Positions 4,526 to 44,431 are shown, numbered from the stretch's first letter. The stretch is 64,000 nt of DNA from a virus (IMGVR_UViG_3300035520_001286:4532-68531); one strand, 5' to 3'. Translations and numbers: made by a program. The notes: generated by a model not told the origin, from the letters alone.

Positions 4526-6700
4526 TTACGCTGTTCTTTGCCATACATAAAAACCTACATATTTTATGGTATTTGTCGTATCTGTTCCACCATTTAATGA
4601 ACCAGCAGTATAAGTGCTTCCTCTTGCAAATAACACCTTATCTGTAATTTGAGTCCAACTTCCACCAAATAATGAAGCAGGTGGTGCATTTCGTGTGGTG
4701 ATAAACAATGAACCTATTGGGTAATTATAACCGCTAACAATATACCAGACTGAATCCTGAAGCACAAGCGTAACGATTTCTCCTGGGAACCAACAAAGTG
4801 GGTAGACTATGTTTACGCCAGTACTTGAGCAAATTTTGTAACTAACCCCAATCGATCCTAATTTTAAATATGTTTCGGTGTCAGCAGTATTGGCATATTC
4901 AAATCTCACTCTTATTGTTAATCCATTATATAGCCCTAACGAAGCAGGATAATCGCTTACTGTTTTAATCGTAGACCTTTCAGTTGATGAACAATTAAAA
5001 ATAACATTTTCCCCGAGGATATCATAAGGGGTGAGTTTTACCGCGCCAGTGCTTCCGTTAACAGAACTTACTCCTGTCGAAATTGTCACGGCACCCGTCT
5101 TTCCATTGACTGATGTCACGGGAATGTCAGTTAATCGTACTACGTCATTATCCCCCGTAGGCTTCCCATAAACTGTTGCTCTTCCGTCCGAATGAACCTC
5201 TAACGCATTAGATCTTGCGGAACTACTGCCATTACCAACTTCAAATAGGGTGTCGGAGTTGTTATTATTATACTTACCAATTGCGGTTTGATAATCGTAC
5301 CCTGCTATAGTATTATCACCGCCTGCATGAGAGCACATGCCTTTGGCGGTGGTGATACCGCCTTCGGCATGAGACTTATTGCCTGACGCAACTGTCTTAT
5401 AGCCCTCTGCATGTGACTCGTTCCCCGTTGCACTTGTAGAGTCACCTTCAGCATGAGACATATAGCCTGTTGCAGTGGTTTTATATCCTTCCGTATGAGA
5501 GGAATACCCTATTGCTGTTGTACGGCAACCTTCCGCATGCGCATTTTCACCTCTGTGGTCATCATATACTATACCTTCATCGGTATCAGTATCTTCTGTT
5601 GAATCTGTTGAACCTGAACCAGACCCCGATGAACTTGTTGGAAGTTTAATTAGTGTTTTTGAATAATAACCTTCAGCATGAGAATGACTTCCTTGAGCTT
5701 CCGATCCCATGCCCTCTGAATGCGCTTGATCTGAGGTAGCTTTGGTATTTAACCCCTCTGTATGAGATTGTATACCTGAAGCAGTTGTATTCTGTCCTTC
5801 AGCATGGGACTGTTCACCTGAAGCAGTTGTAGAATTACCCTCCGCGTGAGATTCTGCGCCTGAAGCAACATTACTATATCCTTCACTATGAGCTGCATAA
5901 CCTGACGCGGTAGTCTCTTGTCCTTCTGCGTGAGAACCTTCCCCAGTAGCTTTTGTACTTATCCCCTCCGAGTGAGAAGCCATACCAGATGCTATTGTCT
6001 TACTTCCTTCGGCATGAGTGGCTTCCATTGTTGCTTTAGTTTCTATTCCTTCGGTATGGGATTGTTCACCTGACGCAGTTGTGGAATTGCCTTCAGCATG
6101 AGCAAATCGTCCAGATGCAGTTGTAGAGTTACCTTCTGCATGAGTATATTCTTCTTTTGCAATTGTAGAGCCACCTTCCGCGTGCGAAGAAGTGCCTAAA
6201 GCTTGTGTATATCTACCTTCACTATGTGAACTATTTCCGCCCGCCGTTGTAGCTAAACCTTCCGCGTGAGCATTGACGCCGCCACTTAATGTAACCGAAG
6301 CGTTACCTTCCGCATGAGAGTAATTTCCTTTCGCAAGAGTTGTAGTTCCTTCGGCAACCGATCTTTTACCTTTTGCTTGTGAAGCACCACCTAATGCTGC
6401 TGCAAAGCTTCCTACTGCGCCAATTTCTTCAGTATCGGTGATCGTATTGTCTTGCGCGTATGCATTAGCATTTTTGCTTTTTACCGATAAGCCGCTTGTG
6501 TAGGAAGAATCGGATACTTGTTGAATTGAGCTACTTCCACTACCAGTTTCTATATTGATCGTTACGTCACCCTTCTGACCATTTACAGAAGTGACAGCAT
6601 TTCCATTTGTATTACTAATAGTATCTTTTAATTCCTCAAAATTACTATTAATAATATCATAATTCTCAGAAACAGTATTACCTCTTAGAATTTTATCCAT
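4526..6700 (-). CDS. tail fibre/adhesin with YadA-head-like (Hep/Hag) beta-roll repeats
   Basis: About 20 tandem 14-aa SHAEGxxTxAxG repeats, VTSVNGKTG linkers, C-terminal YPIGSLF...PASLFGGSWTQI domain. Confidence 0.8.
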   Translation of the reverse strand: MDKILRGNTVSENYDIINSNFEELKDTISNTNGNAVTSVNGQKGDVTINIETGSGSSSIQQVSDSSYTSGLSVKSKNANAYAQDNTITDTEEIGAVGSFAAALGGASQAKGKRSVAEGTTTLAKGNYSHAEGNASVTLSGGVNAHAEGLATTAGGNSSHSEGRYTQALGTSSHAEGGSTIAKEEYTHAEGNSTTASGRFAHAEGNSTTASGEQSHTEGIETKATMEATHAEGSKTIASGMASHSEGISTKATGEGSHAEGQETTASGYAAHSEGYSNVASGAESHAEGNSTTASGEQSHAEGQNTTASGIQSHTEGLNTKATSDQAHSEGMGSEAQGSHSHAEGYYSKTLIKLPTSSSGSGSGSTDSTEDTDTDEGIVYDDHRGENAHAEGCRTTAIGYSSHTEGYKTTATGYMSHAEGDSTSATGNESHAEGYKTVASGNKSHAEGGITTAKGMCSHAGGDNTIAGYDYQTAIGKYNNNNSDTLFEVGNGSSSARSNALEVHSDGRATVYGKPTGDNDVVRLTDIPVTSVNGKTGAVTISTGVSSVNGSTGAVKLTPYDILGENVIFNCSSTERSTIKTVSDYPASLGLYNGLTIRVRFEYANTADTETYLKLGSIGVSYKICSSTGVNIVYPLCWFPGEIVTLVLQDSVWYIVSGYNYPIGSLFITTRNAPPASLFGGSWTQITDKVLFARGSTYTAGSLNGGTDTTNTIKYVGFYVWQRTA
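5320..6370 (-). repeat. tandem 42-bp/14-aa coding repeats (SHAEG)
   Basis: Repeated (S/T/A)H(A/T/S)EG motif at 14-aa period, interrupted once by a Ser/Thr/Asp linker; boundaries approximate. Confidence 0.85.
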
Positions 6701-6733
6701 AAACGAATCCTTTTACTTAATAAAATTTTATGA

Positions 6734-8929
6734 TCATAAAGCATACTTCGTAGTCATAAAGCATACTTTATCACCTAAATCTACATCTGATATTATACTA
6801 ACATTATATGTATCGACAGTGCCTTTGTTTACACCAAATGAAGCATCACAAAACTCGTTTATTATATCAACAGTGGAGATCTTTTTCCCAATGTAAGAAT
6901 GACCATTTGAACTATCATATGTATACACTTCTTTCGCAAAATACACATTACTAGCAGAATATTTATAAGTTCCATCATCAAGTTGCTCTTTATTTGAAGA
7001 ATAAACAATATCATTTGTACTTGCAACTTCATTCATAACTTGCGAACTTGTTGGAATAAAATTATTGCTATAAGTCGGTGTTGTATTATAAGGATCAATG
7101 CTATATGCACTAGATTTTACTTTCTTCTGATTGCCATCTGCAACTATAAATTTATCATTAACAAAATTATTATCGGCATAAACATCACCATCATCACCAG
7201 AAGGAACGAGAAGCCACTCAGTGCTAGTGCCAATAATTAAATCACCAACTTCAGCAACTATACCACCATATGTTCCAGCAGTAATGACTTTATACATATA
7301 ACCAATTGTAGAATTTGAAGCATCAGGTAATTCTGTAATTGTTCCATTAGTTCCCAACGTACCCTTAAAATATAAGCCACCAGAAATTCCGTCAATTGCT
7401 TTAGTCAATTCTTCTGACGTAGCAACTTTTTTGCCATTACTATATAGTTCATTACCTTGTATATATACATTAGTATTTGTATATGTCACAGCATCAACAA
7501 GAGCATCACCTTCTTCACCAAATACGTTAGAACCAATAATGTATAATTTACTATATGTATTATTAGTTACACAAGCAGTCAAATATCCACCATCTTCCCA
7601 AGGTACGTTAACAAATAAACTCCCATTACTATCACTTTCAATTGGATAATATCTTCCAGATGCCGACGTAGCATTATTTACAGAAATAGCATTTGAATCA
7701 CTAGAAGCTTTGGCTCCAGTAGAAGCTTTACTATGATAAACCAAAGGTTTAACTAAGCCTAATGTATTATTTGTCGCACTACTATATGTCGTATTGGTAT
7801 CAACCCAAGGTACATATACAGCAAGATTTCCATCACTGTCTAATTGAACTGAATAAAATCTACCTTCAACACCAGCAGTATAACTAGATGAATCTTGAGC
7901 CAAAGCTGAGTTAGACAATGTAAGTTTAAACTCATTATCATTTAATGTTATACCATCTGAACACGTATATGTTGTATCTGTCCATGGAACATTTACTGCC
8001 AAATCTTTTTCACTATCTAACTGAACTGCATAAAATCTTGAAGCATCATCACCTTTGGTATATGCACTCACTTCAGATGCCACAGTCTCATTTTTAATAT
8101 CAACTTTATACGTAGTAGTACCAGAAATACCACCTGATCCAGAAGAAAGAACAAGACCTACACCAGCTGTATGTGCATGCGCTGTATTAGTATTATTATC
8201 TGTCCATGGCACATTAACTGCAAGTTTCCCATCTTTATCCATTTGAACTGAATAGAACTTTGATGAAGAAGTCCCTTGAGAATATGTACTTGATACAGTC
8301 CCTTTTGTTTCACTTGAAAGAGCAGCTTTAAAAGTATTCCCACTTAATATTATGCCAGTATCACCAGAATATGTTGTATCATTATCAGTCCAAGGTACAT
8401 TCACATATGCTTTATTGTCTGAATCTAACTTAACTGCATAATTCCGTGTTTCACTAGAAAAATCTTCATACCCAATAGCAACCCCACCAATTCCAGAAGA
8501 AGTAGCTGTTTTTAATGAAAATTCATTATTATTTAACGATAAACCATCACTTGCAGAATAAGTTGTATTTTCCCAAGGTACATTAACGACTAATTTATTA
8601 GTTGCATTTTTTTGTACCCCATATGTCCTTTTTGAAGTCGAAGAAGTAGTAATTGCATCAACTGTTTGTATAGTATCATTAAATACTCTTACTAAACCAA
8701 AATCTGTACTAGAAGCTAAAGGTATATTCGCTACTTTGTTTGTAACAATTGAACCATTATTAACTCTTACATCATCTACTTTCCCTACATCTTCTAACTG
8801 TTCCTCAATTTCACCAACTTTTGTTGAAACATCTTCGATTTCTTTGTTCAATTTTGTGAAATTGCTATTTGTATTAACAGTATTTTCACCTATTGTATTT
8901 CCTCTTAAGATTTTTTCTAATTCTGCCAT
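6734..8929 (-). CDS. tail fibre protein with six V(N/Y)VPW repeats
   Basis: Six copies of the YxVxxDxxxxxxVxVPWxDxxTTY-type unit; N-terminus KILRGNT shared with 4526..6700. Confidence 0.75.
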   Translation of the reverse strand: MAELEKILRGNTIGENTVNTNSNFTKLNKEIEDVSTKVGEIEEQLEDVGKVDDVRVNNGSIVTNKVANIPLASSTDFGLVRVFNDTIQTVDAITTSSTSKRTYGVQKNATNKLVVNVPWENTTYSASDGLSLNNNEFSLKTATSSGIGGVAIGYEDFSSETRNYAVKLDSDNKAYVNVPWTDNDTTYSGDTGIILSGNTFKAALSSETKGTVSSTYSQGTSSSKFYSVQMDKDGKLAVNVPWTDNNTNTAHAHTAGVGLVLSSGSGGISGTTTYKVDIKNETVASEVSAYTKGDDASRFYAVQLDSEKDLAVNVPWTDTTYTCSDGITLNDNEFKLTLSNSALAQDSSSYTAGVEGRFYSVQLDSDGNLAVYVPWVDTNTTYSSATNNTLGLVKPLVYHSKASTGAKASSDSNAISVNNATSASGRYYPIESDSNGSLFVNVPWEDGGYLTACVTNNTYSKLYIIGSNVFGEEGDALVDAVTYTNTNVYIQGNELYSNGKKVATSEELTKAIDGISGGLYFKGTLGTNGTITELPDASNSTIGYMYKVITAGTYGGIVAEVGDLIIGTSTEWLLVPSGDDGDVYADNNFVNDKFIVADGNQKKVKSSAYSIDPYNTTPTYSNNFIPTSSQVMNEVASTNDIVYSSNKEQLDDGTYKYSASNVYFAKEVYTYDSSNGHSYIGKKISTVDIINEFCDASFGVNKGTVDTYNVSIISDVDLGDKVCFMTTKYAL

Positions 8930-36584: not shown

Positions 36585-36673
36585 TACCTCATTTAAACTC
36601 AGAGACAAACGAAATACATTATTAATAAATATATTACTTTATAACGAAATGTCTCCATGATAAATCCAGTGAC
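36585..36673. promoter_or_regulatory. paired inverted box, copy D
   Basis: TACCTCATTTAAACTCAGAGACA - 42 bp - TGTCTCCATGATAAATCCAGTGAC. Confidence 0.7.
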
Positions 36674-40407: not shown

Positions 40408-40463
40408 CTACCCTTTTTTGTTGTTTATTTATATTATACCTTATTTAGTATATTTTTAAAATT

Positions 40464-40539: not shown

Positions 40540-40544
40540 ATAGT

Positions 40545-40635
40545 ATAGGGGATAAAAATAACTAATTAACACACAGGGGAAAATACAAACTGGAGGTAAA
40601 TGGACAATTCACATATTAGCTATTTTATTCCCTAT
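40545..40635 (-). ncRNA. long hairpin RNA between tRNA-Lys and tRNA-Ile with C/U-rich loop
   Basis: About 20-bp imperfect terminal stem ATAGGGAATAAAATAGCTAAT / ATTAGTTATTTTTATCCCCTAT; loop contains UUACCUCC and UUUUCCCC. Confidence 0.55.
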
Positions 40636-40711: not shown

Positions 40712-40718
40712 ATATATA

Positions 40719-40821
40719 CTTAAACATGGCTGACGGTTTTACCCACATTTAACAAATAAACATCCTACAAAATTATAAAATAATACAATTTCCCAACTTT
40801 TAATAATGCACCATGTTTAAG
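40719..40821 (-). ncRNA. stem-enclosed spacer RNA between tRNA-Leu and tRNA-Lys
   Basis: Perfect 11-bp terminal stem CTTAAACATGG/CCATGTTTAAG enclosing 81 nt. Confidence 0.45.
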
Positions 40822-40825
40822 GTTT

Positions 40826-40912
40826 TGGTCGGAAGAATGAGATTTGAACTCATATGATATTTCTATCGAGGGATTTTAAATCCCTTGTGTCTGCCTGTTC
40901 CACCATCCTCCG
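40826..40912 (-). tRNA. tRNA-Leu(UAA)
   Basis: CGGAGGA/TCTTCCG acceptor, AGGGA-TTTAAAA-TCCCT anticodon arm, long variable arm, TTCAAAT, CCA; 87 nt. Confidence 0.92.
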
Positions 40913-40917
40913 ATATT

Positions 40918-41022
40918 GGTTATAATATTACTTTTGATTCTGGTAATAATCAATTTCATTATATTAGGTTAGCTACTCCTAATAATTATAACCTCAAATT
41001 TACATTGCTTTACCAGAGCAAT
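40918..41022 (-). ncRNA. structured RNA with four helices and a 7-bp loop-loop pseudoknot
   Basis: P1 ATTGCT/AGCAAT (loop CTGGTAA); P2 GGTTATAAT/ATTATAACC; P3 TATTAGG/CCTAATA; P4 TTGATT/AATCAA (loop ATTACCAG); CTGGTAA is complementary to TTACCAG. Confidence 0.65.
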
Positions 41023-41028
41023 TAAATT

Positions 41029-41099
41029 AGCACTATCTCAGACTCGAACTGAATCTTCCCATATAGTGGGCTGTTTTTCCTTCTTAAACTAAATAGTGA
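41029..41099 (-). tRNA. tRNA-like element with shortened anticodon arm (5-nt loop CUAUA), no CCA
   Basis: Acceptor (T)CACTAT/ATAGTG, D-arm GTTT..GG..AAAC, T-arm TTCAG-TTCGAGT-CTGAG, anticodon arm CCCA-CTATA-TGGG. Confidence 0.65.
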
Positions 41100-41105
41100 T
41101 ATTGT

Positions 41106-41174
41106 TGCCACATATAAGATTTGAACTTATATTTGCTAATAATTTAGCCGCTCTTCCTATTGAGCTAATGAGGC
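41106..41174 (-). tRNA. tRNA-like element with 4-nt anticodon loop (AUUA), ends ACA rather than CCA
   Basis: GCCTCAT/ATGTGGC, GCTC-AATAGGAA-GAGC, GCTAA-ATTA-TTAGC, ATAAG-TTCAAAT-CTTAT; 69 nt. Confidence 0.7.
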
Positions 41175-41177
41175 ATC

Positions 41178-41213
41178 TTATTACTATTAATAACTGAAAA
41201 TTAATAGTAATAA
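41178..41213. other. 13-bp inverted repeat at the 5' side of the RNA cluster
   Basis: TTATTACTATTAA / TTAATAGTAATAA. Confidence 0.5.
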
Positions 41214-41292
41214 AAAAAATAATTATGAGGGTTGTAAAATATAAAAAATTATATTTACATTTATATTATACTTAAACATTTAAATTATATTC

Positions 41293-42912: not shown

Positions 42913-43434
42913 TTAATTATTCTCCTTAAATATCATAAATTTTTGTTTTATACTATTTAATCTACTATAAATAGTTTTTTCTGACCTATCAAGCATTTTT
43001 GCTATTTCAACTATTTTATACCTTTGTTGTTTTTTGTCTAATATGAATTTTTCCTCCTCTGTTAGTGTGTTAAAAAAATCTTTGTAATCTATATTAAACT
43101 CAACTAAATTTATTTCAGTTAATGTTTTATTTGTATATTGGCAATTATCATCATATTCTTCACTATTAATTTTTTCTATTTTATTACCTTTCCTTTTTGG
43201 TTTTATAACTGAGTTATAATTTATATACTGTAATATGCTATTTTTTATATAATTATAAGCATATGTACTAAATTTACCTTTATTTTTATTATATCTTAAT
43301 GCTGCTTTACATAAAGCTAAATATCCTTCTTGTAATATATCTTCATAATCATGAGTTATATGTAATTTATTTATTACGTAATTAACTAATTTGATATTAC
43401 TGTTTATTAAGTTTATTTGTTCTAAATTAAGCAT
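42913..43434 (-). CDS. sigma-70 family RNA polymerase sigma factor
   Basis: Region 2 NIKLVNYVI..EDILQEGYLALCKAALRYNKNKGKFSTYAY; region 4 EIAKMLDRSEKTIYSRL. Confidence 0.85.
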   Translation of the reverse strand: MLNLEQINLINSNIKLVNYVINKLHITHDYEDILQEGYLALCKAALRYNKNKGKFSTYAYNYIKNSILQYINYNSVIKPKRKGNKIEKINSEEYDDNCQYTNKTLTEINLVEFNIDYKDFFNTLTEEEKFILDKKQQRYKIVEIAKMLDRSEKTIYSRLNSIKQKFMIFKENN

Positions 43435-43624
43435 TATTATATAAACATAAAATAATATAATATATTACTATGTTTATATAATATTTGTTATATTAGATAA
43501 TATTATTAATTAATATTAAATAATATAATTAATATTATATTAATATAATAATATATATTATATACTAGAATAATAAATATATTTATATTATACTTTGTTT
43601 ATAATTAAAATATTCATGTAATTT

Positions 43625-43747
43625 TTATTTTGTATGATTATAAAAACTGCATAAACACTTTATAAATGACTTACAAATCAAAAGTATAATAAGAATAGGT
43701 AAAAGTATTATTATAGTAAGTGTTGACCATGAATTCTTCTTTTTCAT
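43625..43747 (-). CDS. 40-aa single-pass membrane peptide (not in ORF track): MKKKNSWSTLTIIILLPILIILLICKSFIKCLCSFYNHTK
   Basis: GAGGT RBS about 10 nt upstream; basic N-terminus followed by about 17 hydrophobic residues. Confidence 0.5.
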   Translation of the reverse strand: MKKKNSWSTLTIIILLPILIILLICKSFIKCLCSFYNHTK

Positions 43748-43786
43748 TTTGTTAAATACCTCATATTTATTTTTGCTTTATTTTAA

Positions 43787-43875
43787 GTCCTTATTTTAAC
43801 TCTGTGACACAGAAGCCTTTAGTAAATAAAATATTTTAAAGGATTCTTTTTATGTCACAGAGTTAATCTGGTGAC
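43787..43875. promoter_or_regulatory. paired inverted box, copy G (best-conserved)
   Basis: GTCCTTATTTTAACTCTGTGACA - 43 bp - TGTCACAGAGTTAATCTGGTGAC; 14-bp perfect inverted match. Confidence 0.85.
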
Positions 43876-43882
43876 TTTAGGA

Positions 43883-44431
43883 TTAATCATGGAGTCCACT
43901 ATAGATTTTTTGTTTAATTACTTTTAGCATTTTGCTTATATTGCACTGTGAATAATGGACCTCATTTGCTATTTCTTGTTGTGTATAACCTTTTTGAGCC
44001 AATTCAATAATTTGCATATATACTTTTGGTTCATTTGTTAGAATTTGCTCAATATAGATTTTAGATTCTATTGTGAGTAAATTGCAATCTTCTTCGCCAT
44101 AAACATTAAGCATGTCTAAGTCTTTATCATCATCATTTTGAATAGCAAAACCAATCTCTTTGCCTTTTCCATGAATGATTTTATATACATACTTAAGCAT
44201 ACTAAAATAAATTTGTCTTACTGCAAATGTGCAAAACTTAATATTTTTCGATTGATCATACTTTAAGCAAGATTTCCATAATGCTATATAACCTTCTTGC
44301 ATAATGTCATCTTTATTTTTGAGTACGTCATTTGATTTTGTAATTGAGGTATTAAATACATATGGAACTAATTTTATGTTCTTTTCATATAATTCATTTG
44401 CCTCAACCATTTTTGTTTGTTTGTTTTCCAT
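43883..44431 (-). CDS. sigma-70 family RNA polymerase sigma factor (second)
   Basis: NIKLVPYVF..DDIMQEGYIALWKSCLKYD..KFCTFA; region 4 GYTQQEIANEVHYSQCNISK. Confidence 0.85.
   Translation of the reverse strand: MENKQTKMVEANELYEKNIKLVPYVFNTSITKSNDVLKNKDDIMQEGYIALWKSCLKYDQSKNIKFCTFAVRQIYFSMLKYVYKIIHGKGKEIGFAIQNDDDKDLDMLNVYGEEDCNLLTIESKIYIEQILTNEPKVYMQIIELAQKGYTQQEIANEVHYSQCNISKMLKVIKQKIYSGLHD

Follow-up and report, generated by a model that had tools for sequence, protein, structure and literature searches.

An orphan structured spacer RNA candidate with complementary hairpin loops in the tRNA operon of a phage

Extra small RNAs in phage tRNA clusters, such as species 1 and 2 of bacteriophage T4, have been known for fifty years. 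The T4 RNAs RNAC and RNAD arise from the tRNA region of the genome, and their role is unknown (PMC3014915). The TMERs of the herpesvirus MHV68 combine a tRNA-like element with hairpins and are processed by tRNase Z (PMC4838037). According to the account given in PMC9514646, which cites Lalaouna (2015), the Escherichia coli sponge RNAs 3'ETS(leuZ) and ITS are cut from spacers of tRNA operons. The RNase Z of Bacillus subtilis cuts CCA-less precursors 3' of the discriminator, and an encoded CCA blocks this cut (PMC1874595). Here, we describe a spacer from the tRNA operon of a phage for which an original prediction had proposed a new class of non-coding RNA, possibly a ribozyme or a decoy for a protein.

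The source phage record (IMG/VR) is 68.5 kb long and carries direct terminal repeats; the window analysed here, a stretch of 64,000 nucleotides to which all coordinates refer unless another contig is named, is part of this record. The window has a G+C content of about 26% and a strongly negative GC skew, and its minus strand carries all long ORFs and all tRNAs, non-coding DNA amounting to about 4.8 kb. The genes near the spacer encode two sigma factors, a single-stranded DNA-binding protein (SSB), an ATP-dependent DNA ligase and the large terminase (TerL), and one neighbour protein exhibits a weak match to small terminases (PHROG, E = 3e-5). Relatives of the SSB protein are found in phages of Enterocloster, Listeria, Brochothrix and Bacillus and in gut viromes, which makes a Bacillota-type host likely for this phage. 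Two other non-coding features of the window were recorded. A stretch of 448 nt without genes (43435-43882) is extremely AT-rich and contains many short repeats and strong hairpins (tile z-scores down to -7.6); it may correspond to a replication origin or to a regulatory region. The motif TGTCTYWGAGTTWAA recurs in intergenic positions 5' of genes on the minus strand (around 39030-38960, 36620-36560, 33200-33165, 25825-25780, 20050-20010 and 48000-47950), and is followed after about 20 nt by TAGAAT at two sites, near 36600 and 33200. It probably serves as a promoter specific to the phage, recognized by one of its two sigma factors (43883-44431 and 42913-43434).

In the 5'-to-3' direction of the minus strand, the operon comprises a promoter-like box, a 14-bp leader hairpin, two tRNA-like elements, the spacer under study (41029-40913), tRNA-Leu, a second spacer of 114 nt, tRNA-Lys, a third spacer of 96 nt, tRNA-Ile and the SSB gene. 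ARAGORN and Rfam analyses identified the three tRNAs of this strand as tRNA-Leu(UAA), tRNA-Lys(UUU) and tRNA-Ile(UAU). The tRNA-Leu(UAA) gene (40826-40912, minus strand) encodes its CCA, and a cut by RNase P at its 5' end would set the 3' end of the spacer RNA. The two tRNA-like elements stand in tandem (41030-41174, minus strand) and have shrunken anticodon loops, of 4 nt in the first and of 5 nt, or a 3-bp stem, in the second. tRNA-like element 1 (41106-41174, minus strand) matches RF00005 with 52 bits. tRNA-like element 2 (41030-41100, minus strand), which would set the 5' end of the spacer RNA, retains the acceptor, D and T arms with a degenerate anticodon arm; it is called by ARAGORN only at the relaxed threshold -ps80, forms a cloverleaf in the minimum free energy (MFE) fold of the precursor and gave no match in the RF00005 search at E <= 10. 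Its sequence ends in ...AUAGUGC, followed by UAA instead of CCA, and the first hairpin of the spacer begins 2 nt after the element. CCA is thus encoded by three of three real tRNAs and by neither of the two tRNA-like elements, which suggests that the latter are RNase Z-dependent 'handles' rather than decoders.

The promoter-like box ATGTTTAAGTATAATATAAAT (41259-41279, minus strand) lies 5' of the cluster, and 13-nt exact repeats of its halves are located 5' of tRNA-Lys and of the SSB gene. These repeats, ATGTTTAAGTATA and GTATAATATAAAT, which occur at 41259-41279, 40715-40727 and 40427-40439 (minus strand), were read as sigma-A-like -10 boxes. The sequence AGTATAATATAAATGTA recurs 5' of a tRNA-Gln gene in a distantly related contig, L022. 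The leader hairpin (41178-41213, minus strand) is a perfect 14-bp stem with a z-score of -6.4, located directly 5' of tRNA-like element 1, and a comparable hairpin (1107-1145) precedes the tRNA-Gln gene of L022. A scan of the spacer for promoters and terminators revealed nothing above shuffle expectation.

The spacer itself (40913-41029, minus strand) extends from the discriminator of tRNA-like element 2 (41030) to the 5' end of tRNA-Leu (40912), and the predicted released RNA is 117 nt long with 23% G+C. RNA position i corresponds to window coordinate 41030-i, in the sense of the minus-strand RNA. Hairpin P1 (40997-41028, minus strand) has a 6-bp core, AUUGCU/AGCAAU (41022-41004), extends to 12 bp with one bulged G, and carries the 7-nt loop CUGGUAA (41016-41010, minus strand), which is shaped like an anticodon loop (U33, GGU, A37). 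Helix P2 pairs GGUUAUAAU (40985-40993, minus strand) with AUUAUAACC (40918-40926, minus strand) over 9 bp, with probabilities of 0.73-0.99, and closes a three-way junction with two hairpins: P3 (40962-40984, minus strand), with the 7-bp stem UAUUAGG/CCUAAUA, a 9-nt loop (AGUAGCUAA) and probabilities of 0.84-0.98, and P4 (40934-40953, minus strand), with the 6-bp stem UUGAUU/AAUCAA and an 8-nt loop (AUUACCAG). The junction strands measure 0 nt, 8 nt (UAAUGAAA) and 7 nt (AAGUAAU). The sequence UUACCAG (40946-40940) in the P4 loop is the exact complement of the P1 loop.

This fold is both the MFE structure (-20.7 kcal/mol) and the centroid, with pair probabilities of 0.63-0.99, and the module is kept when a 349-nt precursor with the flanking tRNA and tRNA-like elements is folded. 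The original description of four perfect helices (6, 9, 7 and 6 bp), with a junction formed by P2 to P4 and an exact match between the P1 and P4 loops, holds in full for the minus-strand RNA, as does the placing of this RNA in the gap between a tRNA mimic (41100-41030) and tRNA-Leu (40912-40826). The P1 and P4 loops are each about 94% unpaired in the nested ensemble and are therefore free for a tertiary contact; the energy of the loop-loop duplex is about -7.5 kcal/mol (-7.4 and -7.6). Loop-loop helices of 7 bp, of the type known from ColE1, are sterically possible and unusually stable in the presence of Mg2+. The spacer is left with one unpaired nucleotide on its 5' side and five on its 3' side, 10 of its 11 cytosines are engaged in G-C pairs, and all 41 pairs are Watson-Crick, G.U pairs being absent from the 34 nested and the 7 loop-loop pairs.

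The two other spacers of the operon are also closed by terminal stems. Spacer 2 (40712-40825, minus strand), between tRNA-Leu and tRNA-Lys, has a perfect 11-bp closing stem (CTTAAACATGG/CCATGTTTAAG) and a stability of -25.8 kcal/mol as minus-strand RNA versus -13.4 kcal/mol for the plus strand. This asymmetry is better evidence for structure at the RNA level than the 41029-40913 spacer has. Spacer 3 (40540-40635, minus strand), between tRNA-Lys and tRNA-Ile, has a single long closing stem of about 20 bp (z about -2.7). All three inter-tRNA spacers are thus closed on themselves, and this, together with the strand bias of spacer 2, suggests that RNA-level structure is the rule in the operon. In addition, the D/anticodon region of tRNA-like element 1 (AGAGCGGCUAAAUUA, 41140-41154) and the first 15 nt of the spacer under study (UAAUUUAAUUGCUCU, 41015-41029) are complementary at 14 of 15 positions when G.U pairs are counted, a possible alternative pairing in the precursor that is absent from its MFE structure.

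A comparison of the spacer (40913-41029) with the 4227 models of Rfam 15 returned no match at gathering thresholds, and a search of 1.1 kb at E <= 10 returned nothing overlapping the spacer. These results agree with the initial failure to recognize a hammerhead, HDV/theta, twister or riboswitch consensus. A hammerhead was rejected because the junction strands are devoid of a CUGANGA/GAAA/UH core, and none of the twister, HDV, pistol, hatchet, hairpin, VS and other ribozyme models of Rfam scores in the spacer at E <= 10, so that the suggestion of a ribozyme is unsupported. A purine-riboswitch-like aptamer was rejected as well: the loop-loop contact would join P4, in the junction, to P1, outside of it, the spacer matches neither RF00167 nor any other riboswitch model, and it sits between tRNA genes. 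The same applies to a tRNA or tRNA remnant, since RF00005 has no match in the spacer at E <= 10 and the anticodon-arm shape of P1 is its only tRNA-like trait. CRISPR repeats ending in ATGTAAAT are known from Clostridium; the corresponding pattern, with up to three mismatches, was absent from 401 genomes of the phylum to which the genome holding the related locus L038 belongs, a weak test by which P1 was rejected as a mimic of such repeats. Two descriptions do apply. The spacer belongs to a phage tRNA cluster, shares the strand of its tRNA genes and adjoins them, as rnaC and rnaD do in T4, and the locus has the handle-plus-passenger layout of TMERs and mascRNA, with a CCA-less tRNA-like element immediately 5' of a structured RNA.

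We propose that the spacer corresponds to a structured non-tRNA passenger RNA of the phage tRNA operon, a tentative reading to which we assign a probability of roughly 0.45. In this model, a sigma-A-like promoter near 41270 would drive minus-strand transcription of the cluster, and the spacer would fold alone into a 12-bp hairpin and a three-way junction, the free loops of P1 and P4 probably docking as a 7-bp kissing helix that would compact the molecule. RNase Z would cut 3' of the discriminator of the CCA-less tRNA-like element 2, and RNase P at the 5' end of tRNA-Leu; the two cuts together would release an RNA of about 117 nt, whose paired ends should slow exonucleases. We infer the RNase Z cut from the specificity of the B. 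subtilis enzyme and from the presence of a CCA-less element 5' of the spacer. The position of the spacer, on the transcribed strand with a tRNA-like element lacking CCA on one side and a tRNA-Leu encoding it on the other, indeed suits release by tRNA processing, as the original prediction had supposed, and the promoter-like box present 5' of the spacer is also found in a distant relative. The most probable role of such an RNA would be passive or cis-acting: it would separate neighbouring AT-rich tRNA folds and present them to the processing enzymes. Self-closing spacers fit a general need to insulate AT-rich tRNA folds.

Several observations argue for a passenger RNA: the location of every ORF and tRNA on the minus strand, the robust fold with its free complementary loops, the loop-loop statistics given below, the Bacillota-type host suggested by the SSB relatives, the closure of all three spacers, the distribution of CCA between tRNAs and tRNA-like elements, the persistence of a tRNA- and ncRNA-rich stretch at the same place in relatives, and the precedents of T4 and MHV68. 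Others argue against it. For the nested MFE, the z-score is -2.05 in the minus-strand sense; folding is still more favourable for the plus strand (z = -3.6, MFE -23.4 kcal/mol). The z-scores of 21 other intergenic 110-nt tiles of the phage average -1.8 (sd 2.5); taken alone, the nested fold is unremarkable for the intergenic DNA of this phage. The absence of G.U pairs and the resemblance of P1 and P4 as imperfect inverted copies also weigh against a passenger RNA, as do the lack of a homologue and the lack of a comparable module in the relative L038. Finally, if a rough cost of 9-12 kcal/mol is charged for the pseudoknot, as with the pKiss parameters, the energy gained by stacking in the kissing contact would be more or less offset.

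The loop-loop match sets this spacer apart. Of 4000 dinucleotide shuffles, 6 gave a complement of at least 7 nt between loops; when the loop-loop duplex energy is added to the MFE, the total has a z-score of -4.3 and was reached by none of 1000 shuffles, nor did any of these reach the loop-loop duplex energy taken alone. Among 2130 real 117-nt tiles of the window, two contained a loop-loop match of at least 7 nt, both AU-only and located in loops of 13-27 nt. The match was chosen post hoc, and the family-wise chance is roughly 0.05 given the 4.8 kb or so of non-coding DNA; on these terms, it is probably non-random.

The most serious rival, doubtful in our view, is that the spacer is neutral: its helices and loop complement would have been produced by local inverted duplications or template switching in very AT-rich DNA, and its RNA would be degraded once the tRNAs are processed, the structure being unselected. 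The average MFE z-score and a plus strand that is at least as stable are in line with this proposal. With no G.U pair among 41, the structure is strand-symmetric and its helices are perfect inverted repeats, which could equally fit young DNA-level repeats or a selected RNA. P1 and P4 are imperfect inverted copies of one hairpin (TTG-x-T-CTGGTAA-x-CAA), P1 resembling the reverse complement of P4, so that a single inverted duplication of a hairpin could have made the 'kiss'; P4 and P3 form a 72% direct repeat. A neutral origin would also agree with the fact that the spacer was not found in L038 and has no homologue in the collections searched. It accounts poorly for the loop-loop energy, which none of the 1000 shuffles reached and which has no comparable case among the 2130 tiles, and for the mutual compatibility of four helices and a kissing contact that use 10 of 11 cytosines. 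Moreover, the stems of P1 and P4 differ by one C:G pair versus two A:U pairs, a change that leaves both hairpins intact, and closed modules in three of three operon spacers are likewise at odds with neutrality.

The sole other copy of the spacer that we recovered belongs to a 100% identical contig (Logan; L011). In a blastn search of the tRNA cluster against 50,697 phage records, only tRNA genes were matched. The exact 17-mer of P1 has eight matches in IMG/VR, all of them chance matches of 17-21 nt, and the three-loop pattern (CTGGTAA..AGTAGCTAA..TTACCAG) was found at 12 loci in IMG/VR, GTDB genomes and JGI metagenomes, some of them near-identical and thus fewer as independent matches, all attributable to chance and none with the hairpins. 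A covariance model of the spacer (R1) detected no second copy in the window and none in 19 other loci, including the relatives L022 and L038-L040, and blastn-short revealed no second copy in the window either. The new class of non-coding RNA proposed by the original prediction fails for now, since neither the collections searched nor the closest relatives obtained yielded a homologue. This absence is weak evidence: no homologue was found because the phage lineage is almost unsampled, not because relatives have been shown to lack the element.

Relatives of the neighbouring proteins are very few. SSB, ORF153, ORF261 and TerL searched against IMG/VR, and ORF261 against JGI metagenomes, gave no usable relative; one contig (L010), devoid of tRNA, has a weak 49-residue match to ORF153. 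In a large protein database, the neighbour proteins retrieved the identical contig L011, two contigs of about 1.2 kb (L021 and L022) and unrelated chromosomal SSBs. The nearest relatives of ORF261 (57% identity) and ORF153 (44% identity) are each located on a contig of about 1.2 kb. In L022, the ORF153 relative is accompanied by the same promoter-like box and by a hairpin, then by a genuine tRNA-Gln and the end of the contig; the position of the cluster is therefore conserved and its content different. The SSB-related reference phages (Dulem virus 39, MT835487 and MT835503) have no tRNA cluster adjoining their SSB gene.

A search of 1.8 billion representatives with TerL retrieved relatives at 48-52% identity, those recovered being 48-49% identical. 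One of them, L038 (TerL 48% identical), contains a gene-free stretch of 1.7 kb located 5' of TerL (6460-8167), with tRNA-Met, tRNA-Ala, a tmRNA-like gene (RF00023, 43.7 bits, just below the gathering score; ARAGORN tag AKQNIFARIINALAPKQYSQCAA), an uncalled tRNA-like element at about 6972-7043 and structured non-coding spacers of 167-755 nt. In L038, R1 matched no module, and pairing between loops extends over 5 nt at most. Both L022 and L038, which are distant relatives, have a gene-free stretch rich in tRNAs and non-coding RNAs at the same genomic place. We also observed that the TerL proteins of relatives (L038, 10001-13060; L040, 1562-4654) are 1019-1030 amino acids long versus 681 here and exhibit faint Pfam matches to LAGLIDADG or intein-splicing domains, suggesting that the large terminase of these relatives carries an intein.

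A trans-acting function appears unlikely. Under this proposal, the RNA would be a small RNA or decoy, either mimicking an anticodon stem-loop to occupy a host anticodon nuclease or a tRNA-modifying enzyme, or acting as a sponge for an RNA of the host or the phage, and the kissing contact would mask or present the loop. The P1 loop, C-U-GGU-A-A, has the canonical form of an anticodon loop, which ARAGORN reads as Thr(GGU) at relaxed threshold, and two tRNA bodies with collapsed anticodon loops lie directly 5' of the spacer; paired ends would favour stability, and the sponge RNA of the E. coli tRNA spacer provides a precedent. The proposal nevertheless draws on the shape of one loop, and no CRISPR-repeat-like or other match to P1 was found in the 401 genomes. 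A decoy for a protein, as imagined in the original prediction, is pure speculation. Less probable still is a more specific version, in which two decoding-dead, CCA-less tRNA bodies would serve as RNase P/Z handles delivering a compact kissing-loop RNA whose anticodon-like CU-GGU-AA loop, exposed or masked, decoys a host tRNA-directed enzyme, either an anticodon nuclease or an anticodon-loop modifier.

It is improbable that the spacer acts as a DNA element. The palindromes TTGCT-CTGGTAA-AGCAA and TTGATT-CTGGTAAT-AATCAA, 70 bp apart and in opposite orientation, would then be sites for a dimeric DNA-binding protein involved in operator function, recombination or replication. All helices are perfect Watson-Crick palindromes, equal on both strands, and the two sites share half-sites and centre. 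Against this, the window contains 6 copies of CTGGTAA versus 5.25 expected, which is no enrichment, and the other copies lie inside genes; no further copy of the palindrome was detected by blastn-short in the window or by R1 in the window and 19 loci; and the sites are flanked on both sides by the tRNA operon and adjoin no regulated gene.

We consider it very improbable that the spacer is the remnant of a decayed tRNA-Thr(GGU) gene. P1 is a perfect look-alike of an anticodon arm, ARAGORN run with -ps80 reads it as that of Thr(GGU) in a cloverleaf at 41046-40972, and the length of the spacer (about 105-117 nt) approximates one tRNA plus linkers; this cloverleaf, however, shares 17 nt with tRNA-like element 2, contains two mismatched pairs in its acceptor stem, lacks a T-loop, and is contradicted by the missing RF00005 match at E <= 10 and by the absence of a GTTCRA box anywhere in the spacer. 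Least probable of all is a new class of self-cleaving ribozyme: hammerhead-like ribozymes likewise combine a compact three-way junction with a tertiary contact between loops, and no known family was matched, but the spacer has no conserved catalytic core, no relatives, a G+C content of 23% and plain A/U-rich junction strands, and self-cleavage is not needed because RNase P and RNase Z sites already explain the release.

On balance, the most fitting description of the element is that of an orphan spacer RNA with structure, comparable to the small RNAs in the tRNA cluster of T4, which also lack an explanation. It may still be a functional small RNA; the reading as a new class, ribozyme or decoy is unsupported, lacking any relative or catalytic signature, and an orphan spacer cannot carry a strong claim alone. 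If it is a stable processed RNA, it would be a very small and experimentally tractable case (117 nt, with a simple fold), and the layout of a tRNA-like handle followed by a passenger RNA suggests how such RNAs are made. If the decoy reading is true, the herpesvirus TMERs would have a counterpart in a bacterial virus, and the 'extra' RNAs that phage tRNA clusters carry would gain a first function.

Among the known systems, the aptamers of purine and lysine riboswitches resemble the spacer in having a multi-helix junction compacted by the pairing of hairpin loops. They differ from it in that one kissing partner of the spacer, P1, lies outside the junction, and the spacer has no Rfam match, downstream regulated gene, expression platform or conserved junction core. 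The antisense kissing hairpins RNA I and RNA II of ColE1 also consist of two hairpins with fully complementary loops of 7 nt and partly complementary stems, as in the spacer; their contact is intermolecular and arises from transcription of both strands, whereas the hairpins of the spacer form an inverted repeat in one strand. The E. coli 3'ETS(leuZ) and ITS RNAs, as described in PMC9514646, share with the spacer their source, the transcribed spacer of a polycistronic tRNA precursor. They are short, largely unstructured, dependent on Hfq and RNase E, and directed at known sRNA targets, in contrast to a spacer that is almost fully base-paired.

The MHV68 TMERs resemble the phage locus in layout: stable stem-loops come directly after a viral tRNA-like element that does not decode and lacks CCA, and the tRNA 3'-processing enzyme would free the downstream RNA. 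TMERs are Pol III transcripts of a eukaryotic herpesvirus and their hairpins are pre-miRNAs for Dicer, whereas the phage locus would be polycistronic, in a bacterial host, and is followed by a real tRNA; the likeness is an analogy of logic only. The RNAs of T4 share no sequence or structure homology with the spacer, and R1 run in cmsearch with filters off found no match in the T4 locus (L041, 1909-2172). T4 rnaC has a tRNA-type T-arm (GGGUUCGAAUCCC) and 43% G+C, whereas the spacer has no tRNA arm and 23% G+C, and the MFE folds of rnaC and rnaD contain no loop-loop complement longer than 4 nt, unlike the spacer. In their setting, rnaC (139 nt) and rnaD (119 nt) are among its closest counterparts: they are small non-tRNA RNAs, encoded on the tRNA strand within a phage tRNA cluster and adjoining tRNA genes, and are thus delimited, as the spacer RNA would be, by tRNA processing.
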